NCBI GenBank assembly: GCA_003402745.1
Contig: QQND01000005.1
Location: forward strand, 1,357 to 65,356
DNA length: 64,000 bases
Source of the DNA: Verrucomicrobiota bacterium
GTDB lineage: Bacteria > Verrucomicrobiota > Verrucomicrobiia > Chthoniobacterales > Chthoniobacteraceae
Reading direction: 5' to 3'
The notes under the pieces are model-generated. The model saw nothing but the letters and a program-made list of their open reading frames with translations. It was not told the origin of the DNA and did not search any database. Positions 16,501-64,000 of this stretch are shown here, in pieces. A program made the position numbers and the translations under genes. The stretch's first letter is position 1. Each line of letters starts with the position of its first letter.

Positions 16501-17133
16501 GCTCTGTCAGATTTGTGCTTCAACGATCAAGGGAACACTCTTGCGGCAACGTTGACTGGGGGTTCGATCCAGACGCTTGCCGTACCCTCCGGGGAATTGC
16601 GGCTGCAGATGCCCGGCAAATTTCAAAAAGCGATTTTCGCAGGTCCGGGCGATCAACTCATCGCCTCACAGGCAAATCTGGAGAAGCGCGATTTCGTTGA
16701 GTATCTGGTGCAGCAATTGGACGGAACCACCGGTGCTATATTAAAGTCTGTTTCGGTTCGGTTTAAAGTTCAGGCTCTTGCACGCTCCCCTGACCATAGC
16801 CTCTTCGCGGTGGCGGGGGTCGACCGGAGTATTTATTTTTTCAACCCTGAAACATTGGAGGCTCAGGGTGCGTTTCGTGCCCACGATGACGAGATTGGAG
16901 CCCTTGCTTTTCATCCGTCGCTTCCGATCCTTGCCAGCGCTTCCTCGGATGGTTCGGTCAAATTGTGGAATTACAAAAACAAGAAACTCTTGGATCACTT
17001 CATCGGTCTTGCCGGCGCTCCTGTGGCATTGGCCTTTAGCCCCAAGGGAAATCTTCTCTTGGCAGAGGCTCAGGAGGATACGACGCGACTTTACGATGTC
17101 AGTCATTTGAGTGCCGCAAAGTCTCCCGAATGA
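13516..17133 (+). CDS. FHA domain + Ser/Thr protein kinase + TM + WD40 beta-propeller protein
   Basis: FHA-like N-terminus. Hanks kinase motifs 'GGMGQIF', 'VAVKV', 'HRDLKPENIMV', 'DWGLAK' and 'GTPQYMSPEQ'. Hydrophobic segment 'ITISIATALCAIFALSSWFVL'. WD40-like 'AHDDEIGALAFHPSLPILASASSDGSVKLWN'. The start could be GTG 13516 or ATG 13525. Confidence 0.9.
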   Translation: MACMRQWSLTLHDPTGILTQFESGEAQFVVGSEAAGDVLRVVAEGVAPRHVRVRLASERMQVEDLGTDLGTLVNGNAIEGRVEFEYPASVQFGKVTLVVEAKMEKAQEAPDPSLAETIPQRGVRQSATSLDVTKPQRPRREMETRRSGNPVAAPSENEAPLAGKYTLVREIARGGMGQIFLAEDPQLKRQVAVKVSSLSYGGEDPRFSKEAAVLAHLAHPNIVPIYNLGVDAQRRPFYSMKLVKGRTLQAVLDAIRDGDAVVAREYPRAALLTVFRKVCDAMAFAHSKGVLHRDLKPENIMVGEYGEVLVMDWGLAKVLGEADLKGVARSVASDTRDSGMTMEGEVMGTPQYMSPEQAEGMVAELDVRSDIYSLGGILYAILTLRPPIDGTTLNEVLTKVRKGEISSMLSKRRGSGSLGEATPAVMDEEVPEALRGVTLKAMARERSKRYARAEEFAADLEAYQNGFATTALQVGAFGHLILLMKRNRGITISIATALCAIFALSSWFVLSLRTKERVATRAAEVAEIEKDKAVQAERQAQASFAKAQIALAEASFRSGDFPEMSKALHLCPEEMRDQTWEYLASKSDSSMGVLKFSELDKPTLVRAVPGEAGQFALATLGGDIGFVQAGTGKLLRKFKTAKGLSNFVFSGDGRLFAVLIGGKELRIYNTKTGEPQGSMTLPEAPLTLSVGQAEPLALNENGTVLAAIVTTSDAKPVRRLQLIDVPSCLVRWYFDSPGLNAVQFHPDGTRLHVIAGGASRYSWIFDAASGKKLSESRVFALCQALHPDGKSVAVGTQEGEVLIIDTASGAVLRNAKLHSGRLISLAWTADGHLLTVGTEGKHYDTRWLFKLWAPRTFALRAVFAGLEPKEPVQWGYDPLSGYLVTLENPCRLWRIPAGRELARLKNGSETGYSGDFLSETILLGRQGWGLTLYELGQQMQLSKIKNIPDWKERFCAVHQKSGLFAISGVEAPIQIRLLSLDAGAVKTHFSKPIPSALSDLCFNDQGNTLAATLTGGSIQTLAVPSGELRLQMPGKFQKAIFAGPGDQLIASQANLEKRDFVEYLVQQLDGTTGAILKSVSVRFKVQALARSPDHSLFAVAGVDRSIYFFNPETLEAQGAFRAHDDEIGALAFHPSLPILASASSDGSVKLWNYKNKKLLDHFIGLAGAPVALAFSPKGNLLLAEAQEDTTRLYDVSHLSAAKSPE

Positions 17134-29562: not shown

Positions 29563-31017
29563 TCATCGAAGTTCCGCTAGCAAAACCGAGGGTTGTTTCC
29601 CAGGTGCACAATGCCGGCCGATAACTTCGATAAGGGCGCGCAGGTCACTCTCGCTAGTAAACGGATTCATCAGTGCGGTTCTTAACCAGACCTCGCCCTT
29701 TAAGACCGTTTGGACGATGTAAAACTCACCCGCGGAGACAACCGCAGCGCGAATTTTACGCTGCAACTCATTCGCTGCATCCACATCCAAACCAATGGTT
29801 TTTACGCGAAAACAAACGATATTTGATTCCGGCCTGACCGCCGTTTCAAACCGTTCGTCCTGTCTTAATATCTCATCGAATAAGACCGCGGTTGCGTGGA
29901 CGCGCCGGAGGTTCTCCACGAAAAGGCCCTCCCCATGCACTCTCCAAATCGAGGCGATTTTCAGACTCATCGCCAGCTTCGTACACTCAAACGAACGACG
30001 CCCCACATTAAACCATTCCGCTTCCCTGGAAGCATCCCACAGATATTGCGCCTTTTGTTCAAACGCCGACCACGATTGTGAACCGTCTCGGAAGACAACA
30101 GCCGTAGCCAAAGCGGGGGTGAGAAGAAGTTTGTGGAAATCTAAAACCACGGAATCTGCGCGCTCAATTCCCACAAGGCGCTCGCGTAGTTCACTGCAAA
30201 AAGCAACCGCAGCTCCGTGCGCTCCATCCACGTGAAACCATAACCCGCGGCGCTCACAAAAATCTGCGATCGCGTTCAAGTCGTCGTACGATCCAGTCGA
30301 CGTTGTGCAGGCGCTTCCCACCACAGCAACCGGCGTCCTGCCTTGCAAAACACATTGCTCAAACACCTCATCCAAAAGATCAACCCGCATTTTAAAACGG
30401 GCATCCACTGGCACCACAGCAAAGCCGTTTCGCCCCCACCCCATCACATGCGCCGCACGCGCAGAGCAGTAGTGCGCTTCCGCAGAGGCCATAATCGCCC
30501 ACTTCGGCTCGGTCCCTGACTCGATCGCACCCCCCACCTGTTTGGCGCGGGCTGCAAGGAGAGCTGTTGTCATCGCAAGCGTCCCCCCAGAAGTGAGAAA
30601 CCCGCTCCCCTGCGGCATCCCTAAAAGATCAGAAGTCCGTTCAATAATCCAGCGCTCCAAAGCAGTCGCAGACGGCCCCATCTCATAAACCGCCATCCCG
30701 TTGTTGAGCAGTTCGGAGACCAACCCCGCCAAGGCTGCGACTGGGGCCGGCGCACAAACCTGATGTCCCATATAGCGCGGGTGATGCAGGTGAATCGCCC
30801 TCTTCACAAATTCATCCAGAAACTCAAAAGCCTCTCCTGAAGGCTCCTGCATTTTTTGGGCCCAGAACGCAAATTCCACCTCAGGCCCCTCTCCGTTGAC
30901 CACTCGCCCTTTGCGTGAGAGAGCAGAAGATAGATGGTCGGCGAGGAGGTCCACCACGCGGTGGCCTAATTCACGAAATGCCTCTGGCTCAAAAGCTCTT
31001 TCCAAGGGACTTTTCAT
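29563..31017 (-). CDS. Group II PLP-dependent amino-acid decarboxylase
   Basis: Fold-type-I decarboxylase layout with 'HVDGAHGA' and the PLP-lysine context 'SVVLDFHKLLLTP'. Confidence 0.8.
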   Translation of the reverse strand: MKSPLERAFEPEAFRELGHRVVDLLADHLSSALSRKGRVVNGEGPEVEFAFWAQKMQEPSGEAFEFLDEFVKRAIHLHHPRYMGHQVCAPAPVAALAGLVSELLNNGMAVYEMGPSATALERWIIERTSDLLGMPQGSGFLTSGGTLAMTTALLAARAKQVGGAIESGTEPKWAIMASAEAHYCSARAAHVMGWGRNGFAVVPVDARFKMRVDLLDEVFEQCVLQGRTPVAVVGSACTTSTGSYDDLNAIADFCERRGLWFHVDGAHGAAVAFCSELRERLVGIERADSVVLDFHKLLLTPALATAVVFRDGSQSWSAFEQKAQYLWDASREAEWFNVGRRSFECTKLAMSLKIASIWRVHGEGLFVENLRRVHATAVLFDEILRQDERFETAVRPESNIVCFRVKTIGLDVDAANELQRKIRAAVVSAGEFYIVQTVLKGEVWLRTALMNPFTSESDLRALIEVIGRHCAPGKQPSVLLAELR

Positions 31018-31145: not shown

Positions 31146-32228
31146 CTATTCCCACGCAGGTTTCTGGTTGAGAAAATTAGGCGAATATTCCGTGGGGTCG
31201 TAGGCCCGCACCCAGAGCGGGCTCGCAGCACCAGATATCGGCGGCACAAGCCAGTCCCAACGGCCCGTCACCGGCCGTCCACAGGCTTTCTCCTCCTCCT
31301 CAAACCGAACATGCAACTGCGCCGCTGTGTGGTGGTCGATCATCCTGACTCCCGCCTCCCGGAACGAATGCAACACCGCTCGATTAAGCTCAACCAACGC
31401 TTTGTCCCTCCACAACGATCCCTCCCTTTTTTCAAAAATTCCCATCCGCTCAGCGAGTTCAGGAAGCACATCATAACGGCTCCAGTCCGCAAGATTTCGA
31501 GCCCCAATTTCCGTTCCCATGTACCAACCGTTGAACGGAGCTGCTGGGTACCGGATGCCCCCGATTTCCAAAAGCATATTGGTCACCACCGGAACCGAAT
31601 ACCAGCGCAGCTCCATTTCCTTAAACCACAAAAATTCTGGGTGTTCCATTTTTACCTCTAAAACACTTTCCGGCGGCACTTCAAATACGGCGGGCCTCGC
31701 ACCCGGCCCAGAAACCACGATGGGTAGAACATCAAACCGACCCGGACGCTCCGGCGCATTCCATCCCAGGGTCTTACAGTGCTCTGTAAAGCGAGCTTCA
31801 GCAGGGTCGCCCAAAACCTCTCCATCTTCGGCCGCATATCCTGCGTATCGCACAAGTTGATAGTTCCAGACCCGCCAGGGCACCCGGCCGCGCTGGGCGG
31901 GAAAAACCGTAACCAGCGGCCGGACCGCACCGCCATTTGTCGCCAACTTCAAGTGCTCAACACATTTTTCCGCGAGACCCTCCGCGCACTCCGTTTGCCT
32001 CGCATCGCGAACCTCCAATTGTTTCCAAAAGTAACGGCCAATACAACGGACGCTGTGCCGCCAGGCGAACCGGCATCCCCATAGCAACTCTTCAGGGGTA
32101 TGCTCGTAAAAGCGGTGCCGATCAATTTCGCGAAGAACCGCGCTTCGCCGTGCAAGGGTCACCCCCGGCCCACCCTCCTCACTTTCCAAAAGATCCAAGA
32201 AAGCTTCGGCTTTTTGTTTTAACGACAT
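31146..32228 (-). CDS. nos: Nitric-oxide synthase, oxygenase domain only (bacterial NOS)
   Basis: 'AWRHSVRCIGRYFW', with the heme-thiolate Cys codon at 32045..32043. Also 'GWYMGTEIGARNLAD' and 'WLVPPISGA'. Length (about 360 aa from MSLKQK) fits bacterial NOSoxy, and no reductase domain is present. Confidence 0.85.
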   Translation of the reverse strand: MSLKQKAEAFLDLLESEEGGPGVTLARRSAVLREIDRHRFYEHTPEELLWGCRFAWRHSVRCIGRYFWKQLEVRDARQTECAEGLAEKCVEHLKLATNGGAVRPLVTVFPAQRGRVPWRVWNYQLVRYAGYAAEDGEVLGDPAEARFTEHCKTLGWNAPERPGRFDVLPIVVSGPGARPAVFEVPPESVLEVKMEHPEFLWFKEMELRWYSVPVVTNMLLEIGGIRYPAAPFNGWYMGTEIGARNLADWSRYDVLPELAERMGIFEKREGSLWRDKALVELNRAVLHSFREAGVRMIDHHTAAQLHVRFEEEEKACGRPVTGRWDWLVPPISGAASPLWVRAYDPTEYSPNFLNQKPAWE

Positions 32229-32330
32229 TCTGCCGCGTATCTTCAGGCGGCGGTAAACAGAAGCTGACGCACCATCGCCTGAGGCGGCTCCGGGCAAGAC
32301 TAGAGGGCACTCTGGCATTGCAAACGTAAA

Positions 32331-52159: not shown

Positions 52160-54460
52160 ATGACAGAGCCCACGACTGCGCCATCCCCAGAAACCCCAGC
52201 CAAGAGCGTAAAACGCCCCGTAAAACGCAAGCCGAAGACGGAGGCAGCGGTGCCTGCACCCCAGGAACCTGTCGTCGCGACTGGGGCCGCTACCGAGGCA
52301 CCCGCCGGCAAAGCCTCCAGCGTGCGTAAGACACGTCCAAAACCCGCCTCCATGGCACAGGACACCGTCTCGACGCCGCTCGCCCCACCCGTGGTCACCG
52401 ATGCACCAAAAAAGCTGGCGACCAAAAAGCCAACCGCGAGAAAAACAGCCTCACCGCCGGAACCAACCGCTCGGATCGCAGAGCCGGTTTACAGTGCCCC
52501 AGAGCCCCCTCCAGAGCCCCCCTCAGAGAGCGGTGCGCCCGCCGGAGCCAAGCCCCGGCGCAAAAAAGCATCTTCTCCCGCCTCAGAGATTCCTTCAGCC
52601 GAACCGGAAAGTATTTTGTTGCCCAACGACGGCTCGTCTGCGCCCGTAAAGCGGGCAAAAACAGTCCCCCGAAAAAAACGGGAGGAAACTGCTGCGCCGT
52701 CCGCGCCTCCAACCCCCGCGCCCGCCTCCTCTGCTCCGGAACCCCTCTCCCGCGAAGATTCCCATGAAACCTGGTCTCCGGGTTCTCGCTCGACGACGGT
52801 TCCAGTAGAATCAGCGCGCAAGCCCTATCCCGTGTATGTACCTCTGCACATCGCCAAACAGATGGAGCAAGAGGGCAAAGCCGCGCCGTTAGCCGTTGCC
52901 GCCGACGCTCATCAGGCCGCAGAAATTCGCGCGGCATCCTACGAGAACCGCCACGGGGGCGGCCACCAACCCCAGTCGCAGGCGACAACCTATCCACGCG
53001 ATGATCAGGGCCGCGGACAACGCCGGGAACGCTCAGGGGAACGCTCAGGGGAACGCTCAGGGGAACGCTCAGGGGAACGCTCAGGGGAACGCTCAGGGGA
53101 ACGCTCAGGGGAACGCTCAGGAGAACGCTCAGGAGAACGCTCAGGAGAACGCTCAGGAGAACGCTCAGGAGAACGCTCAGGAGAACGCGTGCAGGAGAAC
53201 CGCTCGCAGGACCGCCATGAACGTCACGATCGGAAACGGAGCAGGCACGACAGAAGAAGGGACGGGCGCGATGAGCCCCATCAGCCGCATCAAAGGCAGG
53301 GCGATAGCCAGAACCAGCAAGAGCACACCCGTGAACTGCCCCCGCCAACCCTTGAGGAACTTTCTGAAGGAGAAGGAATCATTGAGATTTCGGGCAAGGG
53401 ATTCGGTTTCTTACGCGACCGCGGGCGCAATTTTGCCCAGAGCCCAGCTGACATCTTTGTTTCGCCTGAGATGGTTCGCCGATTCAATCTACGGGACGGC
53501 CAGTGGATCAAGGGAACGGTAAGAAAGAGCGGCAGAGGCCATCAGATGCATGAAATTCAATCGGTCAACGGAGATGCTCCTGAGGCGTCTCGGATGCAGC
53601 CCTCTTTCGACGAGCTGACGGTGATTAATCCGAGCGAGCCGCTCTGGATGGCGACCACTCCCGAGCGTTACACGACGCGGATCATTGATATGGTTTCACC
53701 GATAGGAAAAGGGCAGCGGGGACTCATTGTGGCCCCGCCTCGGACAGGGAAGACGACCTTGCTGCAGCACATTGCAGACGCGATGATGAAGAACCACCCG
53801 GAGGTACAGCTCATCATGTTGCTCGTTGATGAAAGACCGGAGGAAGTCACTGAAATCAGGCACACCGTGCCCAAGGCGGAGATCATGGCCAGTTCAAACG
53901 ACATGGACGTGCGCAGTCACACTCGGATTGCTGAACTTGCCATTGAGCGCGCCAAGCGCCTGGTGGAAGCAGGCAAGGATGTGTTCATCCTACTTGATTC
54001 GATCACCAGACTTGGGCGCGCCTTCAACAATGCGATGACCAACGGCGGACGCACCATGTCTGGCGGGATTGACGCTCGGGCGATGGAAACGCCTCGAAAA
54101 CTGTTTGCAGCCGCGCGGAACACGGAGGAGGCGGGGTCGCTCACCATTATTGCAACCGCGCTGATTGAAACGGGAAGCCGCATGGATGAAATCATCTTTC
54201 AAGAATTCAAGGGCACCGGAAATATGGAGCTCGTACTGGACCGTAAAATTGCTGAACAGCGGATTTACCCTGCCGTGGATATTTTCCAGAGCGGAACGCG
54301 CCGGGAAGAGCTGCTGGTGCCTGCGGACACGCTGCACAAAATCAATTTTTTGCGCAGGGGACTCGCCGGCTGCCGGCCCTCGGACGCAATCGATCGGCTT
54401 CTGTTTTATCTCAAAAAGTTTCAAACCAACGACCAGATGCTCCGCGAAATCCGCGGATAG
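52160..54460 (+). CDS. rho: Transcription termination factor Rho with an N-terminal low-complexity extension of about 400 aa
   Basis: Core from about aa 404: 'GEGIIEISGKGFGFLRD', 'IFVSPEMVRRFNLRDGQWIKG', Walker A 'APPRTGKTTLL', 'LLVDERPEEVTE', 'LLDSITRLGRAFN' and 'EFKGTGNMELVLDRKIAE'. Confidence 0.95.
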   Translation: MTEPTTAPSPETPAKSVKRPVKRKPKTEAAVPAPQEPVVATGAATEAPAGKASSVRKTRPKPASMAQDTVSTPLAPPVVTDAPKKLATKKPTARKTASPPEPTARIAEPVYSAPEPPPEPPSESGAPAGAKPRRKKASSPASEIPSAEPESILLPNDGSSAPVKRAKTVPRKKREETAAPSAPPTPAPASSAPEPLSREDSHETWSPGSRSTTVPVESARKPYPVYVPLHIAKQMEQEGKAAPLAVAADAHQAAEIRAASYENRHGGGHQPQSQATTYPRDDQGRGQRRERSGERSGERSGERSGERSGERSGERSGERSGERSGERSGERSGERSGERSGERVQENRSQDRHERHDRKRSRHDRRRDGRDEPHQPHQRQGDSQNQQEHTRELPPPTLEELSEGEGIIEISGKGFGFLRDRGRNFAQSPADIFVSPEMVRRFNLRDGQWIKGTVRKSGRGHQMHEIQSVNGDAPEASRMQPSFDELTVINPSEPLWMATTPERYTTRIIDMVSPIGKGQRGLIVAPPRTGKTTLLQHIADAMMKNHPEVQLIMLLVDERPEEVTEIRHTVPKAEIMASSNDMDVRSHTRIAELAIERAKRLVEAGKDVFILLDSITRLGRAFNNAMTNGGRTMSGGIDARAMETPRKLFAAARNTEEAGSLTIIATALIETGSRMDEIIFQEFKGTGNMELVLDRKIAEQRIYPAVDIFQSGTRREELLVPADTLHKINFLRRGLAGCRPSDAIDRLLFYLKKFQTNDQMLREIRG
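53027..53182 (+). repeat. 13 perfect 12-bp tandem repeats encoding (E-R-S-G)13 inside rho
   Basis: GAACGCTCAGGG x7 followed by GAACGCTCAGGA x6. A degenerate 14th unit (GAACGCGTGCAG) follows at 53183. Confidence 0.95.
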
Positions 54461-55360: not shown

Positions 55361-57454
55361 CTACTTCGCATCCATCTTCCAGACACCTCTCCAATCCGGA
55401 GGTGGGTTGAGCGCCAGTTGTTGACAACGTTCCCCGAGCGTTTGGCTCGCACCGTCAGAGTACGTCCGATGCAACCCTTCAAAGGCCGCTTGCGCCTCGG
55501 CAAAGTGTCCCTCGGAATACAGGGCATATGCGGCGGTATAGGCCTCGCACAACTGGGCATAGTTAGGAGGCGTGCAGGGATTTTCGCATTCCAATAATTC
55601 GATCGGCTCTGTCTTTCCTTTCACAATGGCCCTGTCCACCAGACGGTGGATCCCGGGATTGGTGAACTGCGAAAAAGTGTCCCGTGAAACGAGCAAGCGC
55701 ACCCCGTAGTACTTGGTCAGCGATTCGATGCGCGAGGCGGCGTTCACACTGTCTCCCACCAACCCGTAGTCCAACCGCTTTGCGGAACCCTTGTTGCCGA
55801 CGAGCACCCGCCCGCTGTGAAGCGCCACGCCGTACCCGAAGATCTCGAGAATCTCCTTTGAAAAGGAGGCCCGCAACGCTTCCATAGCTGTTATCAGTGC
55901 ATAAGCCGCCCGCAAGGCCCGGTCGGCCGCGTCCGGTTGGGGCTTCGGGGCCCCCCAATAGCTCAGGAACTGATCCCCCAGAAAGTGCTCAAGGTTTCCC
56001 TGCTCCTTCATGATGGCATTCGTCTGCGCCTCGAAGACTTTATTGAGCAGGTCAAACATCCCCTGCGGACCGAGGATCTCCGCCAGGGGCGTGGAATTTC
56101 GCAGGTCCGTGAGCAGGAGCGTCACGTCCGCGTGTTTGGGCTGCATCGAACCGGGATCCGCAAGAACCGCCTCCAGAACCGTGGGCGAAAAATAGAGCCC
56201 CATCGTGTGCTTGAGTTTCACGCGGTCGATCCGTTCCCGAAAAAAGTCATAAAAAAGGATGAGCACACCTCCCCCCATCAACGCGAAAAGGGGCGCCGCC
56301 ACAGGGACCATCCAGCCCAACTTGTCGTAACACCACTGCGCCAGCACCCAGTAGCTAGCGACACTCATGACAACGGTGCCCAGCCTCTGCATAGGCTGGA
56401 AGTTGTGGAAAGAGAGCGCCCCCGCGAGCATCCCCGACATGAGAATAATGAGCACCACAACCGCTTTGGGGGGTTCCCACAGAAACTGTTTTTGAAGCGC
56501 CGCCGCAAGGATGTTCAGATGCACCTCGGGGCCGTTCATCTGGCGCTGGGTGAAAGGGGTGTCGTGTTCGTCGTGGAAAATCCCAGCCGTCGGACCGATC
56601 AGCACGATTTTATCCCGAAAAAAGGACCCGTTTTCGTAGTTTTTTTCCCAGACTTGGGGAATCAGTACGTCGCCGATGGGATGTATTTTATAGCCCATTC
56701 CAGGCTCGCTGCCATACCGGAAGCGGGTTAGATCAAACGTGGGGGGTATCGTATCTGGCCTTCCAAATTTTTGCAGCACCCGGGAGGCGAGGGACTCCAT
56801 CACGGCGGTCTCCTCCACCACAAAACCCGCCTGCGCTCCCGTTTGGCGAAACCGGGTGCGTCTGACCACTCCGTCGGGGTCCTTGGGAATGTTCACGTAG
56901 GCGACCCTGTCGTCCTGCACGAGCGCCTCGTTGTCGGCAGCGGGCAGCACCACAGAGTTCGGGGAGATGAGGTGCAGGAAATCACCACGGTCGGCCTTCT
57001 GCGTGCTCAGCGTGCAGCCGATGACTACCTTGTCCTTGTGCTTGGCTAAGGCCTCCGCCAAGCGCGCGTCTCCCATGTTCGGCGAGCCAAACACCAAATC
57101 GAAAGCGATCACCTTCGCGCCGGCCCCGACAAGTTTGTCCGTGAGCTCCGCCCAAACTGCGCGCGACCACGGGAAATCTTTCTGCAACTCCCTTAAGATA
57201 GGAGCGCCCTCCAAATCCTCGTCCTTGAAATCACTAGCCGGATAGTTGGGTCGGTCAATCCCGATGAGTACCAGCTCAGGAGAGACCAGGGTTTTCCTTC
57301 CCAACCGGGTGCGGACATCCCCGGTAAAAACTTCCAAATCCCGCAAAGGAGCATAGGAAATGCCCTCAATCAAACCAGAGAGCAAAAGCGCCAGAATCGA
57401 ACATCCTAGGCAGATGCCGATGAAAGCTTGGCGGCGGTCGATTTCGTGACTCAT
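55361..57454 (-). CDS. CHASE2 sensor domain + class III adenylate/guanylate cyclase, with a short helical C-terminal tail
   Basis: The N-terminal TM and CHASE2-like periplasmic region is followed by 3 TM helices. Cyclase blocks 'VTLLLTDLRNST', 'FLGDQFLSYWGAP' and 'GLVGDSVNAASRIES'. Confidence 0.85.
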   Translation of the reverse strand: MSHEIDRRQAFIGICLGCSILALLLSGLIEGISYAPLRDLEVFTGDVRTRLGRKTLVSPELVLIGIDRPNYPASDFKDEDLEGAPILRELQKDFPWSRAVWAELTDKLVGAGAKVIAFDLVFGSPNMGDARLAEALAKHKDKVVIGCTLSTQKADRGDFLHLISPNSVVLPAADNEALVQDDRVAYVNIPKDPDGVVRRTRFRQTGAQAGFVVEETAVMESLASRVLQKFGRPDTIPPTFDLTRFRYGSEPGMGYKIHPIGDVLIPQVWEKNYENGSFFRDKIVLIGPTAGIFHDEHDTPFTQRQMNGPEVHLNILAAALQKQFLWEPPKAVVVLIILMSGMLAGALSFHNFQPMQRLGTVVMSVASYWVLAQWCYDKLGWMVPVAAPLFALMGGGVLILFYDFFRERIDRVKLKHTMGLYFSPTVLEAVLADPGSMQPKHADVTLLLTDLRNSTPLAEILGPQGMFDLLNKVFEAQTNAIMKEQGNLEHFLGDQFLSYWGAPKPQPDAADRALRAAYALITAMEALRASFSKEILEIFGYGVALHSGRVLVGNKGSAKRLDYGLVGDSVNAASRIESLTKYYGVRLLVSRDTFSQFTNPGIHRLVDRAIVKGKTEPIELLECENPCTPPNYAQLCEAYTAAYALYSEGHFAEAQAAFEGLHRTYSDGASQTLGERCQQLALNPPPDWRGVWKMDAK

Positions 57455-57541
57455 GGCAATAAACTTAAGGAACTCCGGCGCCGGCGCCGTAAGCCGTCTC
57501 CCGGGATCTCCGACTTCGTCCCCGGGATTGGAGAGAAGGTT

Positions 57542-58537
57542 TTAAAATTGTATCCTCAGGGACATGCCCAACCCAGTATCCACCTTCTGGTAGTCTTCAA
57601 TAGTGACGTCGCTGGAATCACGCGCCTCGAAATTCGCAAAGGTGCGTAGACTGAGGTCGTTGGTCAGGGCATAAGCAAGGACCAGTCCCACCGAATGAAT
57701 GACGTCCTTGCGCTGGTGATTGCGCGTGTACTGGGTCAACTGCGCCCGGTAAAACGGTTGGAAAACCAACCCCTGCAAAAGTTCCCGTGTGTAACTGATC
57801 GTGGCCGATTCATCCACCCGGTCATAGTGGTCCGTATACGGGGCGTCCACATGCGAGATGTGCCCGCCGACACCGAGACTTGCCGAGAACGCCGACTTCT
57901 TACCCAGTGCAAAGGACCTTTGAAGGCTCACGTTGGGGGCGAATTCGCTATAGAACTCTTCGTAGGTGCCTCCCTCAGCGCTCAGCAACCGGTTGTGATC
58001 GAGCCCCACCATGGCCACCCATTTTTCGTGAAACAGGTACCGCCACTGCATGAAAAAAGAACTCACGTCAAAATCGGAGTCATTGATGAAACTTTCGTTT
58101 CCCCCAGTTGCAATCCCGTAGTTGAACTTTTGGTGGCGGTACCCAAGCTTTGTGGACAACTCGCCTCCAGGAACCTGCCAGGCGGGGGGCGTCAAGGCGG
58201 CTTGCACCGTCGAAATCATCAGGGACGTTTCAATTTTTTCACCCTCGTACTGAGTCGCGTTTGAGGTGGACCCAAACTGGACGTCCGTGGAGGCCTCCAA
58301 CCAAGAATGGCGGGCCTTCTGGCGGATGAGCACCTGCGGGCCGACATCCTTGTCTTCGTCCTCATACAGGGAGGAAATCGCTTCGGGTGCGGGCGTTTGC
58401 AAGCGGGGGATCAAGTTCAAACGCTCGACCTGCTGGGCGGCGGAATCAATGCGGTTTTGAGCGAAACTGATTCCCGAGAGTGCGCCAAGGGCAGCGAGCG
58501 CCAGGGCGGGACCGCGGAGGGGAAAGAATGACTTCAT
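57542..58537 (-). CDS. Outer-membrane beta-barrel protein
   Basis: Signal peptide 'LALAALGALSGISFA'. Alternating amphipathic strands. The C-terminus ends in '...GLGMSLRIQF' (terminal Phe). Confidence 0.65.
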   Translation of the reverse strand: MKSFFPLRGPALALAALGALSGISFAQNRIDSAAQQVERLNLIPRLQTPAPEAISSLYEDEDKDVGPQVLIRQKARHSWLEASTDVQFGSTSNATQYEGEKIETSLMISTVQAALTPPAWQVPGGELSTKLGYRHQKFNYGIATGGNESFINDSDFDVSSFFMQWRYLFHEKWVAMVGLDHNRLLSAEGGTYEEFYSEFAPNVSLQRSFALGKKSAFSASLGVGGHISHVDAPYTDHYDRVDESATISYTRELLQGLVFQPFYRAQLTQYTRNHQRKDVIHSVGLVLAYALTNDLSLRTFANFEARDSSDVTIEDYQKVDTGLGMSLRIQF

Positions 58538-58553
58538 GAAAATACGCCCTCGG

Positions 58554-60608
58554 CTAAGGAGTTCTCTGCTGGACGCTCATGTTGGTAATTCGAGAGCCGT
58601 CGGACCGTTGAATATCATTCGTCGTAGAGGTGCTCTTGATCAGATCGCCTCCATATTTCACTCCACTGATGAAGTTAACCTGAAAAGGCCTCGAACGCTG
58701 GTTTGTGTTTGGCAAAGCTGCGAGCACTCCGTCTCTGGAGGCCAACCGAACCGTGGATCCGTCCTGAAAGTCGACGTTTGTCAGGTTGATCGTTCTCGCA
58801 TCCAGGGAAATGCTGGCCGCATTCAACTTCGTCGCAGGCACAGTGCTGGCGATGTTGATGTCCCCGCCGGCCACCATTTTCAAAGTGGAATTCGGAGCCG
58901 TGAACTCCCTCGCCCAAGCTTCATTAATGAAAATATTAGTAATGGCGCTCATCAAAACATTGCCCCTCGCGTAAACGCTCGTGTCTGCGGCGGTTATGGA
59001 GCTTCCTGCGATTTCAACCGAACCGGAACGGTTAAACACAACGGTCTTTGTGAGCTCTATCGTCGGAGACACGGAGGCGTCTGCGAGGCCAAGAACAAAG
59101 GCCTCGGATTTTATATTTAAGAGCGTTTTGTTCACCGTCACGGATCTGCCCTGGATCAAGAGCAGCTTTTCTGTCGCTACAGGTCCCTGAGCACCGGCGA
59201 GTTCAGAGGTGAGTTGTGTCAGACTGGGCCCACCCGGCTCGGAAAGGCTCATTGGCGTGGGGCCGCTCAGATTCAGGGCGGCGTCCGTTCTTGCATCGTC
59301 CAAGAGAACCGTTCCGGTGGCTGCGATGATTTTCAAGTCGATGCGCAGATCGGGGAACAGAAACTCCGCGATACTTCCACCACCGGTGAAGTGCTCTAGC
59401 AGAGGAGGCAGCGACTCACCCGGCAGCAAGGGTGTGGTTGGCGGAAGGGCGGGATCCAGTCCCCTTACCTCCAGGTTGTTTGCGAGCAGCAACCGCGCGG
59501 ATTTGTCCCCGTAATTCAGTTTCAGTTTGCTGTAACTTGACTCGCCAAAGACGGAGGCGAGGGACTGCGGCACGCTGGACCCTGGGGACAACTTAAGGCG
59601 GCTCAATAACTCGTTAAAACTCAGAGGGGTTTTCCCGGAACCAAACAGGCTCGACCCAGGCTCTTTCCCATGCTGGCCCAACACCCCCACATTCTGACCC
59701 AGGGCAAAACTGATGGCGGCGTCCATTGCAATGTCGATATTGATCCCCTTCACAGCTTCACTAGGACGCAGCACATCCGCCCTGCGCAGCGGCGGCGACT
59801 CGTTGCCCTCCTCCATCAGGTGTTCGCCCCGCACCCTGAGGCGGGTGGGTTCCGCCCGGCCGTCAGCAATCATTCGCTCTTGCTTCTCCACCGAGGCCAG
59901 CACCTTGCCTTCGGAGGCCACCGGAGCGCGAAATCCCTTCAGCAAACTAGAACCTGCCACCTGGTCTTTCAGACGGAAGTTGAGCACCGGTCCAAATTCC
60001 GCTTTCCCCGGGGAGACCACGGTTAACTGGCCCGCCGTGACGGCGATGGAATCACCGTTAGAGAGCGTGGCCTTGGCCTTGCCCTCGAGAACCAGCAGCT
60101 TGAATCCTCCGCTGGTAGTTGCTGTGACGATGAGCGTGGTTCCCATCACGGCCGCCTGAGCGCCCTCGGAGGAAATCACGCCCCCGCCCTTCCCCGTAGG
60201 TGAATGGAAAAGCAGACTGCCTTTCTGAAGCTTGACCTCTCTTTTGTCCGCCGCAAAGGAGAACACCGTGTTGGCACCGACGCGAGTCACGGTGCCGTCG
60301 GGGGCGATGAGTTCCGCCCTAGAATTTGCCCCAGTGGAGACCTGATCCGGCACTTTGAAAGCTTCGTTAACTACCGCCGGCCGTGAACGCTGGGTAGTGG
60401 CGTCAATCACCATCACCTTATCCACGACCTCGCTGAACTTGAGCGCGTTAAAATTCCCAGGCGCCGCACCAAAAGCCGGGGAGCCCAAAACGGGAAGAGC
60501 AAGCAACGCCGCGGTGATCTGACGCCGGTGAGTGGCGAGAGGGGCGATAAAAGAGAAGATCATAACGGCGAGAAAGGTTGAGCGGGTGGCGGGGCGAGCA
60601 CCAATCAT
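58554..60608 (-). CDS. FecR-domain secreted protein with a long beta-rich C-terminal region
   Basis: FecR-like 'STGANSRAELIAPDGTVTRVGANTVFSF...KLQKGSLLFHSP...AAVMGTTLIVT...LLVLEGKAKA'. Confidence 0.7.
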   Translation of the reverse strand: MIGARPATRSTFLAVMIFSFIAPLATHRRQITAALLALPVLGSPAFGAAPGNFNALKFSEVVDKVMVIDATTQRSRPAVVNEAFKVPDQVSTGANSRAELIAPDGTVTRVGANTVFSFAADKREVKLQKGSLLFHSPTGKGGGVISSEGAQAAVMGTTLIVTATTSGGFKLLVLEGKAKATLSNGDSIAVTAGQLTVVSPGKAEFGPVLNFRLKDQVAGSSLLKGFRAPVASEGKVLASVEKQERMIADGRAEPTRLRVRGEHLMEEGNESPPLRRADVLRPSEAVKGINIDIAMDAAISFALGQNVGVLGQHGKEPGSSLFGSGKTPLSFNELLSRLKLSPGSSVPQSLASVFGESSYSKLKLNYGDKSARLLLANNLEVRGLDPALPPTTPLLPGESLPPLLEHFTGGGSIAEFLFPDLRIDLKIIAATGTVLLDDARTDAALNLSGPTPMSLSEPGGPSLTQLTSELAGAQGPVATEKLLLIQGRSVTVNKTLLNIKSEAFVLGLADASVSPTIELTKTVVFNRSGSVEIAGSSITAADTSVYARGNVLMSAITNIFINEAWAREFTAPNSTLKMVAGGDINIASTVPATKLNAASISLDARTINLTNVDFQDGSTVRLASRDGVLAALPNTNQRSRPFQVNFISGVKYGGDLIKSTSTTNDIQRSDGSRITNMSVQQRTP

Positions 60609-60649: not shown

Positions 60650-63163
60650 TCATTTTCTATTCGAATCCGAATTGCCGGAGAGAACCAACTGCAGGAGTTC
60701 ATCCCCAGTATAACGATCGGCGGCATCGTGCGGGCAGGCGGAGACGCAACGCGGTTCGGGGATGTCTTTTTCCCCCTCCGCATCGCAAAGGTCGCAAGCC
60801 ACGGCCTTCGGTTGGGCCAAGCGCAGGGTCTGGCCGGGCTGAGCCGAAACCTGCTGTACCAGCGCATTTTCATTGGGCACCATAAAGATGCTGCCGTAAG
60901 GGCAATTGTTGGCGCAGAGACCGCAGCCGATGCAGTGGTCTTCAATGACGATCTGCAGATGTTTGCCCCTGTGAATGGAGTCAACGGGGCAGCCCACCAT
61001 GCAGTGGGCTTCCACGCACGAGCGACAGGAGGTCGCCACCATGAAGTTGCCCAACCGCATGCCATCTCGAAGTAGGCGAGTCACAGGCACTCCATGGGAA
61101 TGGGTGCCGTGTTGCTCCACGCAGCCTTTGGTGCATTCGTCGCAGCGGATGCAAAGGTCCATGTTCAGGGCCAGAATACTGCGCCCCTCGTAGAGCCCTT
61201 GGCCCACGTAATTGTCGAGGATCGGATCCGAATGGTTATCCCCCTTCAAGAAGTTCAGGGAACGCACAATCAGGTTGCGGCGCAACGTGGGAAAGGCGCG
61301 CAGCATGGGTAAGAAGTCCTCGCGGCTCAGCCGAGCCACCTCCAATTGTCCGAGCGCCGAGCAACTCGCCGAGCGAACTCCCTTGGGGAGTACTTTGGCG
61401 AGGTCGACCGCGTCCTGATTGAGGACCTCCACCAAGGAACGCTCCACTTCCTCCGCGCTCCGGTCGGCGTCGCCCGCGTCCAAGCCAAGCATGCCGATTT
61501 CGCCAATCAGCCCGCCCGGCCCGCGTGAAACCACCCTAGACTCCTGCTCGTAGCGGCGAATCCCGATGCGCGTATACCCCAAACGTACGATGTAAAGACA
61601 GTCTGCGGGATCCCCCTGATTGAAGAGCACCTGGCCGGGGTTAATCTTTAAAAAACGAATGCGCGGGCGCATGTAATCGATGAGCCGCGCGTATTCCTCC
61701 TTGGGAATCCCCTCGAAGATGCTCAGGGACTGCAACGCGAGGTTGAGCGAACGCTCCCGGTAGGCGGATTCAAACTTCTGGCGCTGGCTGGGCAGGCGCA
61801 TCAGACGATCCAGGACATTTCGGCGGATCTCCCAAACCTCGCCGTCCTCAAGAACCTTGAGGTCCGCGCTTCTGGGCGAACCACTCAGACAGGACATTTC
61901 GCCCACAATCACATCGGCGGGAGTGACCTCGACCTCAAAGACCACCTCCTTGCTCGACTTCGCCATCCAGGCGCTGAAAAAGCCCTTCTTGTCAGGCGCC
62001 GTAGGCTTGTAAACCGTGGTTTGATAACGGCCCGAGCGCAGGATAAAAGCCGTGTTCCCGGGTTCGCCCTGATGCACCAGAAGACTACCCGCGCTCACTT
62101 TGCGCCGCAGGACCAGTCCCTCCTGCCACAGCAAAAACTTGGGCGGCACTCCTGCAAACAAGGGGTCCTTAAGAAGTTCTGCAGCGGAAATTTTCTCCAC
62201 CGTCCCCTGCCTAGGCACCGCCTTCACCGAGGCAACCGGATTAAAGGTGATGGCGCTGGTAGGGCAAGAAATCATGCATTCCCCACACTGCACGCAGCCG
62301 CTTTCACCCATGGGTTCGTCCAGGTCAAACCCGATGGAAGCGTGGGCGCCCTTGCCAGTGCGGCCGATGATATTGTTGCCCTTCACCTCGTTGCAGGCGC
62401 GCACGCAGCGGTCGCAAAGCACGCAGGCGCTGTGATCGGTCACAAACACGGGCGACGAAGTATCAACACGCTGCCTGTGGGCAATGGCCTCCGGTTGGAG
62501 CGGTGCGAAAACTTCGCTTTTAAGGCGCGAAGGGTCGGCGCCACAGCGCGACAACAGACGGCCCAGTTCGTTGAAAGGGGCCAGCTCCTTGTCCAGTTCT
62601 GCACGGGGCGCAGGTTTGAGGTGGTCGACCGCCAGCAACTCGGTGAGCGTCTTGACAGATTTCCGCACCCGTTCACCGTCGGGACCGGCGTCCTGCATGG
62701 TGAAAACCTCCATCCCCTCCTTGACCTGGTGCTGACAGGCAGGAAGCAACTTCCGTTCGGCCGCGCGTTTGCCGCGCTTCTGCCCATAAATTTGAACCAC
62801 ACAAAGCCTGCATACCGCCACAGGCTTCATGTGCGCCTGATGGCACAACACGGGGATCGGTATTTTAACCTCGTCGCCCGGTTGTTTGACGTAAAGTTTG
62901 GTGGCTGCATCGTAAATGGTGGTGTAGCGGGGCGTGGTGCGGCCCTCCAGATCGAGGATGATGTTCCCATTGGCATCCTGAGAAGGCTCCGCCATCGGCA
63001 CCGTCACGCTCTGGCCGTCAATCTGCAAGGTGATGTTCCTGCCGTAATCCCGCTCCACAGGGGCGTCCAAACGCACCAACTGCCCGTTGATATCACGGCT
63101 GAAGAGGCCTTCGTCTTCGTCTTCGCGGGCCAGGGTCGCGGGAAAGTCGGTTGTCGGTAACAT
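60650..63163 (-). CDS. Fe-S protein: NuoG-N-terminal-like 2Fe-2S/4Fe-4S + two cNMP-binding (CAP-effector) domains + DmsB-like poly-4Fe-4S domain
   Basis: 'ITLQIDGQSV...VLCHQ...CRLCVV...LLPACQ'. 'HSACVLCDRCVRAC'. 'CVQCGECMISCP'. cNMP phosphate-binding cassettes 'GEMSCLSGSPRSADL' and 'GEIGML...VRSASCSA'. C-terminal 'CIRCDECTKGC', 'CRSCVEAHCMVGCP', 'CIGCGLCANNCP' and 'CDLCDA...CVSACP'. Confidence 0.8.
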   Translation of the reverse strand: MLPTTDFPATLAREDEDEGLFSRDINGQLVRLDAPVERDYGRNITLQIDGQSVTVPMAEPSQDANGNIILDLEGRTTPRYTTIYDAATKLYVKQPGDEVKIPIPVLCHQAHMKPVAVCRLCVVQIYGQKRGKRAAERKLLPACQHQVKEGMEVFTMQDAGPDGERVRKSVKTLTELLAVDHLKPAPRAELDKELAPFNELGRLLSRCGADPSRLKSEVFAPLQPEAIAHRQRVDTSSPVFVTDHSACVLCDRCVRACNEVKGNNIIGRTGKGAHASIGFDLDEPMGESGCVQCGECMISCPTSAITFNPVASVKAVPRQGTVEKISAAELLKDPLFAGVPPKFLLWQEGLVLRRKVSAGSLLVHQGEPGNTAFILRSGRYQTTVYKPTAPDKKGFFSAWMAKSSKEVVFEVEVTPADVIVGEMSCLSGSPRSADLKVLEDGEVWEIRRNVLDRLMRLPSQRQKFESAYRERSLNLALQSLSIFEGIPKEEYARLIDYMRPRIRFLKINPGQVLFNQGDPADCLYIVRLGYTRIGIRRYEQESRVVSRGPGGLIGEIGMLGLDAGDADRSAEEVERSLVEVLNQDAVDLAKVLPKGVRSASCSALGQLEVARLSREDFLPMLRAFPTLRRNLIVRSLNFLKGDNHSDPILDNYVGQGLYEGRSILALNMDLCIRCDECTKGCVEQHGTHSHGVPVTRLLRDGMRLGNFMVATSCRSCVEAHCMVGCPVDSIHRGKHLQIVIEDHCIGCGLCANNCPYGSIFMVPNENALVQQVSAQPGQTLRLAQPKAVACDLCDAEGEKDIPEPRCVSACPHDAADRYTGDELLQLVLSGNSDSNRK

Positions 63164-63175
63164 GAAAAAGGCCTC

Positions 63176-64000
63176 CTAGGATTGGGGTTGCGGTTTTGCC
63201 ACAGGAGCAGTGAGGTGTTTGGCGACGTCCTCTGGGAAGAAATTCACGAGCGAGCGCAAGGGCGCGGGCACCGACCGGCCAAGGCCGCATATGGAGGAGA
63301 GTTCGATCGCGCCCAGGAGATCCTTCATCAGAGGCAGCAACTCTTCCTTCCAGGTCGTGGCGTCTATCTTCCCGGCGTACAGGCTGTCCGCAAGCGAAGT
63401 CATTTTCTGGGACCCCAACCGGCAAGGCACACATTTGCCGCAGGATTCGTTCCGATAGAACTCCATCGAATAGAGCGTCTGCTCGGCCATGTCGCGCCCT
63501 TCCGCGTAGACCACAAGCCCGGCCCCCAGCGCCTGCGTCGGGCTTAGAGCGCGGAAAAGGTTCAGCTCCAGCTCGAGATCCAGAATGTCGATCTCGAGGC
63601 TGGCAGGGTCGACCCCACGGCGGGCGGCGAGGGCAATCCACGCCTTGTTGTTCACGTGGTCACGAGGTAAACCGGCCCCCGCTTTGAGTTTGGCAGGAAG
63701 GAACCCGCCAGAGGGACCGGAGGGTGCAAACGCCTTCATCGGCAAATCCCCGACGATCCCCCCACAATAGCTCTCGCCGTAGATGAGCTCGCGCAAAGTC
63801 ATCCCCATCGGAACCTCGTAGACCCCCGGCTTTTTCACATCCCCAGAAATGGAGAAGAAACGCCGCCCCTTCCATCCGTTGACCCCGAGCCCGGCATACG
63901 TGGCCCCTCCTTTGGCAAAAATGTAGGGCATCCAACCGTAGGTCTCCACGTTGCTGACGATGGTCGGAAGGTCCTGCAGTCCGTTCGTCTCTAGCTTCGG
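63176..64000 (-). CDS. NuoF-like (51-kDa NADH dehydrogenase flavoprotein-type) subunit, 5' end beyond window
   Basis: The frame stays open to base 64000 ('...VSNVETYGWMPYIF'). SLBB-like 'GDVKKPGVYEVPMGMTLRELI'. 4Fe-4S motif 'ESCGKCVPCRLG'. Confidence 0.8.
   Translation of the reverse strand, partial: PKLETNGLQDLPTIVSNVETYGWMPYIFAKGGATYAGLGVNGWKGRRFFSISGDVKKPGVYEVPMGMTLRELIYGESYCGGIVGDLPMKAFAPSGPSGGFLPAKLKAGAGLPRDHVNNKAWIALAARRGVDPASLEIDILDLELELNLFRALSPTQALGAGLVVYAEGRDMAEQTLYSMEFYRNESCGKCVPCRLGSQKMTSLADSLYAGKIDATTWKEELLPLMKDLLGAIELSSICGLGRSVPAPLRSLVNFFPEDVAKHLTAPVAKPQPQS

Follow-up and report, generated by a model that had tools for sequence, protein, structure and literature searches.

The locus that we describe here raises the question of why a protein built for electron transfer through iron-sulphur (Fe-S) clusters should carry, between its two Fe-S halves, a pair of cyclic-nucleotide-binding (CNB) domains, and what such a protein may do in the cell. 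The gene is located at positions 60650..63163, on the minus strand, of a 64,000-nt stretch of contig QQND01000005.1 from a bacterium of the Verrucomicrobiota; this whole stretch is what we call “the window”, position numbers throughout are those of the window, and residue numbers are those of the 837-aa cytoplasmic product, which starts with ATG and which we refer to as “the target protein”. Our answer, for which we see about as much ground to accept as to doubt, is that the target protein is the Fe-S wire subunit of a module that exports electrons from NADH to periplasmic cytochromes under the regulation of a cyclic nucleotide monophosphate (cNMP), and that it works beside a flavoprotein of the NuoE-NuoF type (NuoEF).

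The gene is a single open reading frame (ORF) with exactly the coordinates and length that an earlier, sequence-only reading had given it, located 12 bp downstream of a NuoF-like gene: the TAG stop codon of the preceding ORF occupies positions 63176-63178, exactly 12 nt before the target ATG, and an AGGAGG Shine-Dalgarno sequence overlaps this stop codon and reaches into the 12-nt gap. The GC content around the gene is unremarkable, and the product has no signal peptide and no transmembrane (TM) segments. An acidic N-terminal extension (residues 1-42, 63038..63163, on the minus strand like all the domains that follow) is strongly conserved in an alignment of 72 close relatives, where D15, E18, F21, R23, G27, L29, R31, D33, P35, D39 and Y40 are invariant. 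It is followed by a [2Fe-2S] ferredoxin domain of the NuoG/HoxU type (residues 43-160, 62684..63037; from Pfam, NCBIfam and the ligand alignment), which contains a lineage-specific loop; by a helical segment at the place of the N5-type cluster of NuoG (residues 161-235, 62459..62683; from the alignment); and by a 2x[4Fe-4S] ferredoxin domain (residues 236-315, 62219..62458; from Pfam and the alignment), where the HoxU-like module ends. CNB domain A (residues 325-460, 61784..62191; from Pfam and an alignment with PKA RI-alpha) and CNB domain B (residues 478-640, 61244..61732; from Pfam and an AlphaFold2 (AF2) model) come next, the latter with a helical insert of about 31 residues in its cassette (residues 560-594, 61382..61486; from the alignment and the AF2 model), and the chain closes with a polyferredoxin of the HydN/HycB/DmsB type (residues 662-825, 60689..61180; from Pfam, NCBIfam and its four Cys4 groups).

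This order of domains, i.e. a NuoG-like Fe-S part, two CNB domains and a DmsB-like polyferredoxin with four cysteine groups, had been proposed from the sequence, and the Pfam and NCBIfam models agree with it. Pfam places Fer2_4 at residues 101-155, Fer4_Nqo3 at 238-285, Fer4 motifs at about 288-308 and Fer4 dicluster models (4Fe-4S) at 707-814, while the two CNB stretches match cNMP_binding (PF00027) with an E-value of 8.5e-28 and 96.6 bits, against a gathering score of 27.5, so that the threshold of the model is passed. In NCBIfam, residues 96-316 match HoxU (E 8.5e-29), as well as the N-termini of the group A6 [FeFe]-hydrogenase and of NuoG, and residues 667-816 match HydN (E 1.2e-14); the equivalog cut-offs are far from reached (HoxU 100.6 vs 333 bits, NuoG 55.5 vs 470, HydN 54 vs 260). 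No Pfam or NCBIfam model for a molybdopterin, hydrogenase or other catalytic domain matches the target protein, as the sequence-only reading had also held. The nearest solved structures are, for the N-terminus, the NuoG-like subunits of bifurcating NiFe/FeFe hydrogenases and NAD-dependent formate dehydrogenases, and, for the C-terminus, HycB3/HycB4 of the hydrogen-dependent CO2 reductase.

The target protein has 32 cysteines, and the 28 of them that are invariant in the 72 homologues are all the Fe-S ligand cysteines: the [2Fe-2S] ligands C107, C118, C121 and C143 (pattern C-x10-C-x2-C-xn-C), the ligands of the 2x[4Fe-4S] domain (C247/250/253/257 and C290/293/296/300, two full CxxCxxCxxxC(P) motifs), and all 16 cysteines of the C-terminal Cys4 groups (671/674/677/681, 713/716/721/725, 744/747/750/754 and 790/793/806/810). 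The stretch HSACVLCDRCVRAC, previously taken for a His/Cys cluster, is in fact the first CxxCxxCxxxC of the ordinary 2x[4Fe-4S] ferredoxin domain and not an N5-type site. PF10588, the family of the His-ligated N5-type site (H-x3-C-x2-C-x5-C), has no Pfam match in the target protein, and the canonical NuoG stretch NHPLDCPxC is VDHLKPAP here; H181 is kept in 92% of the 72 sequences, and the interval between C143 and C247 contains one cysteine only, C207, which is kept in 88% of them. Since this single cysteine is not invariant, no His-ligated cluster is possible between C143 and C247. The acidobacterial relative L091 retains a remnant, H-x3-C-x8-C, with a weak PF10588 match; judging from these alignments, the N5-type site has been lost in the clade of the target protein and is degenerate in the acidobacterial relatives. 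Because of the invariant cysteine groups, and without an N5-type site, the predicted cofactor content is one [2Fe-2S] and six [4Fe-4S] clusters.

The two CNB domains form a PKA-R-like tandem. Cassette A, GEMSCLSGSPRSA (residues 421-433), has the canonical length and matches GELALIYGTPRAA of PKA RI-alpha residue for residue, and one continuous alignment with PKA RI-alpha takes in cassette A and the interdomain helices and reaches the beginning of cassette B; in this alignment, GEMSCLSGSPRSADLKV of the target protein is paired with GELALIYGTPRAATVKA, and GPGGLIGEIGML with GPSDYFGEIALL. Cassette B is formed by GEIGML (residues 554-559) and by RSA (597-599) within VRSASCSA (596-603), with the extra residues of the insert between them, so that the Gly-Glu and Arg-Ser-Ala residues that had been noted in both cassettes are indeed present. 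The AF2 model is confident for the CNB tandem alone (predicted local distance difference test, pLDDT, of about 75-90 over residues 330-640), and the best PDB fold matches of the modelled tandem are the regulatory tandems of PKA and PKG (E about 1e-15), with trypanosome PKA-R structures also among the matches. The insert in cassette B is modelled as helices; its length is lineage-specific, with 0-32 residues in most relatives and about 100 in one outlier, and it is absent from the acidobacterial form L091.

The conservation of the cassettes has been counted in 70 representatives of clusters at 50% identity: in cassette A, the Gly is kept in 69, the Glu in 67, the Arg in 62 and the Ala in 60, and in cassette B, the corresponding numbers are 69, 61, 58 and 49. 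Among relatives of the acidobacterial type, cassette A is kept in 114 of 114, and two cassette-like motifs are found in 112 of 114. Since the Gly-Glu and Arg-x-Ala residues are kept across such diverse relatives, the conservation of the cassettes argues for real nucleotide binding in most members of the family. Each cassette also contains a cysteine at a position where canonical CNB domains usually have Leu or Val: C425 in cassette A (codon 61889..61891) is present in 100% of the 72 close relatives and in 57 of the 70 diverse representatives, and C601, located just after the RSA of cassette B (codon 61361..61363), in 99% and in 41 of 70, respectively; these two residues might provide redox sensitivity.

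The family to which the target protein belongs is large. An exact-sequence look-up gave no entry, and a 97%-identical relative, P0001, has been used in place of the window protein; the window itself is about 97% identical to a metagenome-assembled genome (MAG) of the Chthoniobacteraceae (L005). In a word-index search, at least 905 homologues came out at E <= 1e-5; the top 120 of them are nearly all full length (806-857 aa, 60-97% identity) and, where named, almost all from Chthoniobacterales or other Verrucomicrobiota, and an exhaustive search returned 457 clusters at 50% identity (E < 1e-30). A genome scan located the gene in 80 loci, mostly in MAGs of Chthoniobacterales, including Candidatus Udaeobacter, the remaining loci being labelled Terriglobales/Acidobacteriaceae, Tepidisphaerales or Methylacidiphilales; the Acidobacteriota (e.g. 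Bryobacteraceae) have many related forms of about 720 aa, and one form occurs in Candidatus Riflebacteria. Full-length homologues are found in Verrucomicrobiota, Acidobacteriota and other phyla. The only annotation of the family is “cyclic nucleotide-binding domain-containing protein”.

Variants of the architecture are informative about how the target protein may have been assembled. In locus L085, a natural split at about residue 318 yields a 325-aa HoxU-like protein, which retains the N-terminal extension, and a 513-aa CNB-CNB-HydN protein, both downstream of NuoF; in P0136 (1483 aa), the NuoE, NuoF, HoxU-like, CNB and HydN-like domains are fused in a single chain; and L089 and L090 have the CNB-polyferredoxin core but no HoxU-like part. 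As this core stands by itself in L089 and L090 and is a gene of its own in L085, the comparison identifies the CNB tandem with the polyferredoxin as the evolutionarily stable core, the HoxU-like part being an adapter to NuoEF. Both CNB domains do lie between the Fe-S halves, as the sequence-only reading had it, but the word “inserted” is misleading, and a fusion describes the target protein better, with a HoxU-like adapter joined to a CNB-polyferredoxin core. The existence of hundreds of full-length homologues, of the split form and of the P0136 fusion form also shows that the ORF is not a mis-assembly of separate genes. Two further variants of the core carry additional domains, i.e. a C-terminal NUDIX domain in P0140 and a C-terminal FHA domain in the CNB-Fer4-FHA protein P0249. 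Two representatives of the CNB-HydN type of about 500 aa (P0201 and P0214) are located on contigs of 1.6-3.1 kb, may be fragments, and have been set aside as uninformative.

The partner gene directly upstream is cut by the end of the window, which contains its C-terminal 274 residues (63176..64000, minus strand). These residues include the SLBB and NADH_4Fe-4S domains of NuoF (Pfam, NCBIfam), in line with the NuoF-like assignment made from the sequence, but the full protein is more than NuoF alone: the 97%-identical relative encodes, as one chain of 684 aa, a fusion of NuoE and NuoF with a thioredoxin-like [2Fe-2S] domain, a flavin mononucleotide (FMN)/NADH site, an SLBB domain and the N3 [4Fe-4S] cluster. 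The N1a, FMN/NADH and N3 motifs are intact in this protein, whose last domain is NADH_4Fe-4S (residues 585-672 of 684) and which has no Fer4 domain.

In order to describe the wider neighbourhood, we have compared the ORFs of 73 non-redundant loci and have taken the counts from the 30 loci that have 8 kb or more of flanking sequence on either side. NuoEF is located directly upstream of the target gene in 29 of these 30 loci; within the Chthoniobacterales, a decahaem cytochrome c of about 507 aa with an N-terminal TM anchor is present in 19, a tetrahaem cytochrome c554-like protein and a 302-aa protein with five TM segments (the 5-TM protein) in 18 each, a multihaem protein of about 1370 aa with an LVIVD propeller in 15, a porin-like protein in 11, and an HbpS-like/FG-GAP protein in 10. 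The decahaem, tetrahaem, 5-TM and other neighbour genes occur in three different gene orders, an argument that they are linked by function and not by inheritance alone. L001 has the 5-TM protein first, followed by the decahaem, NuoEF (with a 4-bp overlap with the decahaem gene) and the target; in L091, of the Acidobacteria type, the order is NuoEF, target, 5-TM protein and decahaem. The core triad of CNB-polyferredoxin, 5-TM protein and decahaem is retained, at 24-35% identity, in L001 (Chthoniobacteraceae), L086 (in a planctomycete-like context), L091 and L089 (Candidatus Riflebacteria), the gene set of L001 recurring in the other three at 24-43% identity, and L090 has at least the CNB-polyferredoxin and 5-TM pair before its contig ends; in several phyla, the 5-TM and decahaem genes overlap or abut the NuoEF-target pair. 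An FNR-like FAD/NAD protein is near the relatives of the target in 6 loci only. Neither the gene clusters that recur across the 73 loci nor the annotated contexts that we have inspected include a hydrogenase, formate dehydrogenase, DMSO-reductase-type or other catalytic subunit.

Further away from the core set, the protein of about 1370 aa (L053:12667-16776, minus strand, with homologues in 24 loci) combines multihaem cytochrome c motifs with LVIVD beta-propeller repeats, and porin-like proteins of about 700 aa and HbpS-like/FG-GAP proteins recur with it near the operon; these three could be the distal part of the pathway. In one genome only, the NuoEF-target pair adjoins nuoA-B-C-D-I and nuoH-J-K-L-M operons that lack nuoE, nuoF and nuoG (L004:12619-22511).

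The 5-TM protein (302 aa; L001:5501-6409, plus strand, beyond the end of the window), whose homologues P0283-P0402 are all annotated as “hypothetical”, has the histidines H98/H112 and H275/H289, i.e. two H-x13-H pairs located in two helices. None of the four histidines varies, whether in 59 homologues, in 31 orthologues taken from the loci or in four distant orthologues. Two such pairs in two helices are the classical signature of a di-haem b transmembrane relay, and we regard the 5-TM protein as a putative relay of this kind, whose family may represent a new di-haem membrane cytochrome fold.

Three genes downstream of the target, at 55361..57454 on the minus strand, lies a gene that may supply the nucleotide: its 697-aa product combines a CHASE2 domain with a class III nucleotide cyclase. 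Between the two lie, on the same strand, the genes for a FecR-domain protein (58554..60608) and for a 331-aa protein with a signal peptide (57542..58537), with gaps of 41, 16 and 87 bp from the target through FecR and the 331-aa protein to the cyclase; both intervening genes are specific to close relatives. Scans for terminators and promoters around the target gave counts at or below shuffled expectation and no convincing terminator. A CHASE2 cyclase of this architecture is located within 10 kb of a target relative in 14 of the 73 loci, in three arrangements, a count confined to the surroundings of the operon; the cyclases of the other two arrangements have 25-29% identity to that of L001. The neighbourhood is thus suggestive of the CHASE2 cyclase as the cognate cNMP source. 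Its residues for ATP or GTP specificity, inspected by eye in the sequence, are non-canonical. The FecR-domain protein, the 331-aa protein and the cyclase (55361..60608) may form a periplasmic sensing unit for the cyclase; separately, the C-terminal Phe of the 331-aa secreted protein suggests an outer-membrane protein.

Taken together, these elements lead us to propose the following mechanism. The target protein and the fused NuoE-NuoF would form a two-protein cytoplasmic NAD(P)H dehydrogenase module, in which electrons would pass from NAD(P)H through FMN to the N3 cluster of NuoEF, from N3 to the [2Fe-2S] and the two [4Fe-4S] clusters of the HoxU-like N-terminus, and from there to the four [4Fe-4S] clusters of the HydN-like C-terminus. 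The latter would deliver them to the two b haems of the 5-TM protein and then to the decahaem and further periplasmic or outer cytochromes, the membrane-anchored decahaem cytochrome c and the periplasmic tetrahaem being encoded with the module in relatives; the whole would be a quinone-independent NADH:multihaem-cytochrome oxidoreductase that works from the cytoplasm to the periplasm. The CNB tandem, given its place between the two Fe-S modules, would be the obvious control element: resembling that of PKA-R, it would bind cyclic AMP (cAMP) or cyclic GMP (cGMP), which may be made by a neighbouring CHASE2 cyclase in response to a periplasmic signal, and would switch the electron flow allosterically, by altering either the geometry between the Fe-S halves or the docking to the membrane partner. 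Outward flow would be downhill in potential and would dissipate the membrane potential, as in NOX enzymes, and tight control would be useful because of this dissipation. Of all this, what the sequences show is the domain architecture, the conservation of the ligands and cassettes, the obligate partnership with NuoEF and the synteny with the TM protein and decahaem across phyla; the loading of the cofactors, the binding of the nucleotide, the gating, the direction of the flow and the terminal acceptor are inferred. The most specific form of the proposal, in which CHASE2-made cAMP or cGMP gates the Fe-S wire of a quinone-independent NADH-to-decahaem export system that runs through a hitherto unrecognised di-haem fold and is widespread in soil and freshwater Verrucomicrobiota (including Candidatus Udaeobacter), Acidobacteriota and their relatives, is one that we hold only tentatively, with more doubt than confidence.

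The proposed system can be compared with several known ones. The complex I N-module and HoxFU are alike in the NuoE-NuoF FMN, N1a and N3 motifs, in the HoxU/NuoG match of the target N-terminus, and in the tight gene coupling, which extends to a fused form; the target protein differs from them in lacking the His-ligated N5 cluster, the molybdopterin-like domain and the Nuo membrane or hydrogenase partners, and in its additional CNB tandem and HydN-like polyferredoxin. With the regulatory subunits of PKA and PKG, it shares the tandem CNB domains, the alignment with RI-alpha, the Gly-Glu and Arg-x-Ala residues and the best fold match, but it has no inhibitor or dimerisation-docking segment and no kinase partner, and its tandem lies between two Fe-S modules, with an insert of about 31 residues in cassette B and a Cys in each cassette. 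HydN/HycB/DmsB subunits, which typically relay electrons from a catalytic module to a membrane or polymeric partner, have four Cys4 groups in common with the target C-terminus; here, these groups are fused to CNB and NuoG-like modules, with no molybdoenzyme or hydrogenase partner. In the electron-bifurcating HydABC/Bfu enzymes, the NuoF-like subunit carries an additional 2x[4Fe-4S] ferredoxin domain at its C-terminus and a third, catalytic module is present; NuoEF has no such domain, and no catalytic module is encoded nearby. In NOX, FRE, STEAP and MsrQ systems, a flavoprotein oxidises cytoplasmic NAD(P)H, and a stack of two b haems, with two pairs of histidines spaced by about 13 residues as their ligands, carries the electrons across the membrane to an acceptor on the far side; the two invariant H-x13-H pairs of the 5-TM partner are alike, and these systems offer a functional analogy for the whole, but the 5-TM protein has no Ferric_reduct match and no significant STEAP/NOX fold match, the dehydrogenase is NuoEF with an Fe-S wire instead of an FNR-like domain, and the proposed acceptor is a decahaem cytochrome c.

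The closest published description is that of the ptdABCDEFG cluster, the one relevant source that our full-text literature searches have found, which encodes a tetrahaem, a CNB/4Fe-4S protein (PtdE), a TM “ferric reductase-like” protein, a decahaem and a porin, and the function of which its authors called “completely unknown” (bioRxiv 10.1101/2023.11.21.568154). PtdE is described there as cytoplasmic, with two 4Fe-4S clusters, and its flavoprotein partner, PtdC, as an FAD/NAD(P) oxidoreductase (10.1101/2023.11.21.568154). A CNB and 4Fe-4S protein accompanied by a tetrahaem, a TM protein and a decahaem is also found around the target relatives in L001/L005, L086, L091 and L089, again with a porin and further multihaem proteins nearby. 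In contrast with PtdE, the target protein adds the HoxU-like [2Fe-2S] and 2x[4Fe-4S] N-terminus and has four C-terminal cluster sites; the flavoprotein is a NuoE-NuoF fusion instead of PtdC; and the ptd examples are marine, whereas the relatives of the target are from soil and freshwater Verrucomicrobiota and Acidobacteriota. Set beside the published description of PtdE, the target system looks like a variant of the ptd cluster. An mSphere paper of 2017 and a peat preprint of 2026 on verrucomicrobial and acidobacterial porin-multihaem clusters describe other clusters and do not mention NuoF or cNMP proteins. All the parts of the target protein belong to known domain families, and a related cluster has already been named; the names in the databases are all generic, the ptd preprint is the single source that mentions a relative, and no characterised orthologue is found in the databases or in the literature, which agrees with the expectation of the sequence-only reading that the family had no characterised member. 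On the whole, that reading is largely right: it needs the two corrections made above, on the N5-type site and on the word “inserted”, and it gains the membrane and cytochrome partners.

That no member of the family is characterised is one of several points that weigh against the export module. The AF2 model of the target protein, built from the 72-sequence alignment, has an overall pLDDT of 63 and a predicted template modelling score (pTM) of 0.42, with the Fe-S parts below 50, so we consider it reliable for the CNB tandem only and unusable for cluster-to-cluster distances or the arrangement of the domains; there might be direct contact between the two Fe-S halves, the CNB tandem being looped out. 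The cassette Arg is replaced by His, Tyr or Gln in a few lineages, and the count of neighbouring cyclases is confined to the surroundings of the operon. No cytochrome genes are found within 10 kb in 11 of the 30 full-flank loci, and, as the window ends inside NuoEF, it is the 97%-identical relative (L001/L005) that shows the TM-protein and decahaem genes. In the 5-TM protein, Pfam gives no match at E <= 1, Ferric_reduct included, and a Foldseek comparison of its AF2 model (pLDDT 88) with the PDB gives a best E of 0.33, with a probability of 0.15 for STEAP1; since there is neither a Pfam match nor a significant fold match, it is on the histidine pattern that the putative haem b binding rests. 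Membership of the ferric-reductase family was also considered for this protein and, as no PDB fold match is significant, is unsupported.

The rival that leaves most of this picture in place accepts the same complex and the same electron path, and holds that the CNB domains no longer bind cyclic nucleotides and now serve as a structural spacer, in dimerisation, or in sensing the redox state or another ligand. The CNB fold is known to serve ligands other than cNMPs, as in FNR, CooA and the nucleoside-binding PKA-R of trypanosomes, and the conserved cysteines C425 and C601, with their possible redox sensing, the insert at the usual place of the phosphate-binding helix of cassette B, and the replacement of the cassette Arg in some lineages would all fit such a change of function. 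If binding had been lost, however, most of the family, in different phyla and at identities as low as about 34%, would not be expected to retain, as it does, the Gly-Glu and Arg-[Ser/Thr]-Ala residues, which make the ribose and cyclic-phosphate contacts; cassette A is also exactly canonical in length, cassette B is canonical and free of the insert in the acidobacterial form, which looks ancestral, and CHASE2 cyclases recur beside the gene, so that we find this rival unlikely, if worth keeping in mind. Less probable still, in our view, is that NuoEF and the target protein are the diaphorase of a soluble enzyme (a HoxFU hydrogenase, an NAD-dependent formate dehydrogenase, or a bifurcating HydABC/Bfu complex) or a stand-alone NADH:ferredoxin-type oxidoreductase, with the cytochromes unrelated to it. 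The identity of the nearest solved structures, i.e. the NuoG-like subunits of hydrogenases and formate dehydrogenases and HycB3/HycB4, speaks for this, but the recurrent gene clusters of the 73 loci and the annotated contexts contain no catalytic subunit, NuoEF stops right after the N3 domain, without the extra C-terminal ferredoxin domain of the bifurcating HydB, and the TM-protein and decahaem genes overlap or abut the pair in several phyla.

Two other rivals concern the route and the direction of the electrons. The pair might serve as the alternative NADH-input (N) module of a complex I with 11 subunits and no nuoEFG, the HoxU-like part taking the place of NuoG, as the position of the pair in L004 (= L034), beside nuoA-B-C-D-I and nuoH-J-K-L-M and with no nuoE, F or G, would suggest; the adjacency is limited to that one contig, among the 30 full-flank loci and more than 80 loci overall, the N5-type cluster that links NuoG to NuoI is absent from the target protein, and the conserved neighbours are instead the 5-TM protein and the multihaem cytochromes. 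We consider this reading highly improbable, and we have rejected it, since no locus other than L004 shows the adjacency. Inward flow, in which NAD(P)+ would be reduced through the wire with electrons that periplasmic multihaem cytochromes take up from an outside donor, seems to us only slightly less remote: NuoEF-type modules are reversible in principle, and related ptd clusters occur in nitrite-oxidising Nitrospirales, which need reverse electron flow (10.1101/2023.11.21.568154). Against it, the potentials of haems c and b generally lie well above that of NAD+/NADH, and the electrons would have to move against the inside-negative membrane potential, with no proton-coupled subunit in the cluster, both points following from established bioenergetics. 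The reading that we retain, at the even balance given at the outset, is the cNMP-regulated export of electrons from NADH.

Some other features of the window deserve mention. At 31146..32318 (minus strand), a 390-aa protein with a bacterial nitric-oxide synthase oxygenase domain (PF02898, E 8e-142) is encoded in this Chthoniobacteraceae-like genome, adjoined by a gene for a pyridoxal-phosphate-dependent decarboxylase (29563..31017); a 766-aa Rho-like protein (52160..54460, plus strand) has a Pro/Ala/Ser-rich N-terminal extension of about 400 residues with 13 tandem “ERSG” repeats; a 1205-aa Ser/Thr kinase with WD40 propellers is located at 13516..17133 (plus strand); and a giant protein of 2186 aa with PKD/Ig repeats is located at 1894..8454 (plus strand). 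Rfam and tRNA scans of the window gave no matches.

Redox and respiratory enzymes are usually controlled through gene expression or substrate supply, and we know of no description of a cyclic nucleotide that acts directly, as an allosteric regulator, on a chain of Fe-S electron transfer, nor have we found one in the literature that we searched. If the CNB tandem does gate the electron flow, the target protein would be the first example of such control and a natural, ligand-switchable protein wire. The gene set also points to a route that would lead from NADH to multihaem cytochromes of the periplasm without quinone, in carriers that belong to very abundant and poorly understood soil and lake bacteria, i.e. 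the Chthoniobacterales, including Candidatus Udaeobacter, the Bryobacteraceae and the Terriglobales, where it would bear on the disposal of reducing power or on the respiration of extracellular acceptors; and in a family of 457 clusters, a function assigned to one member would propagate widely.

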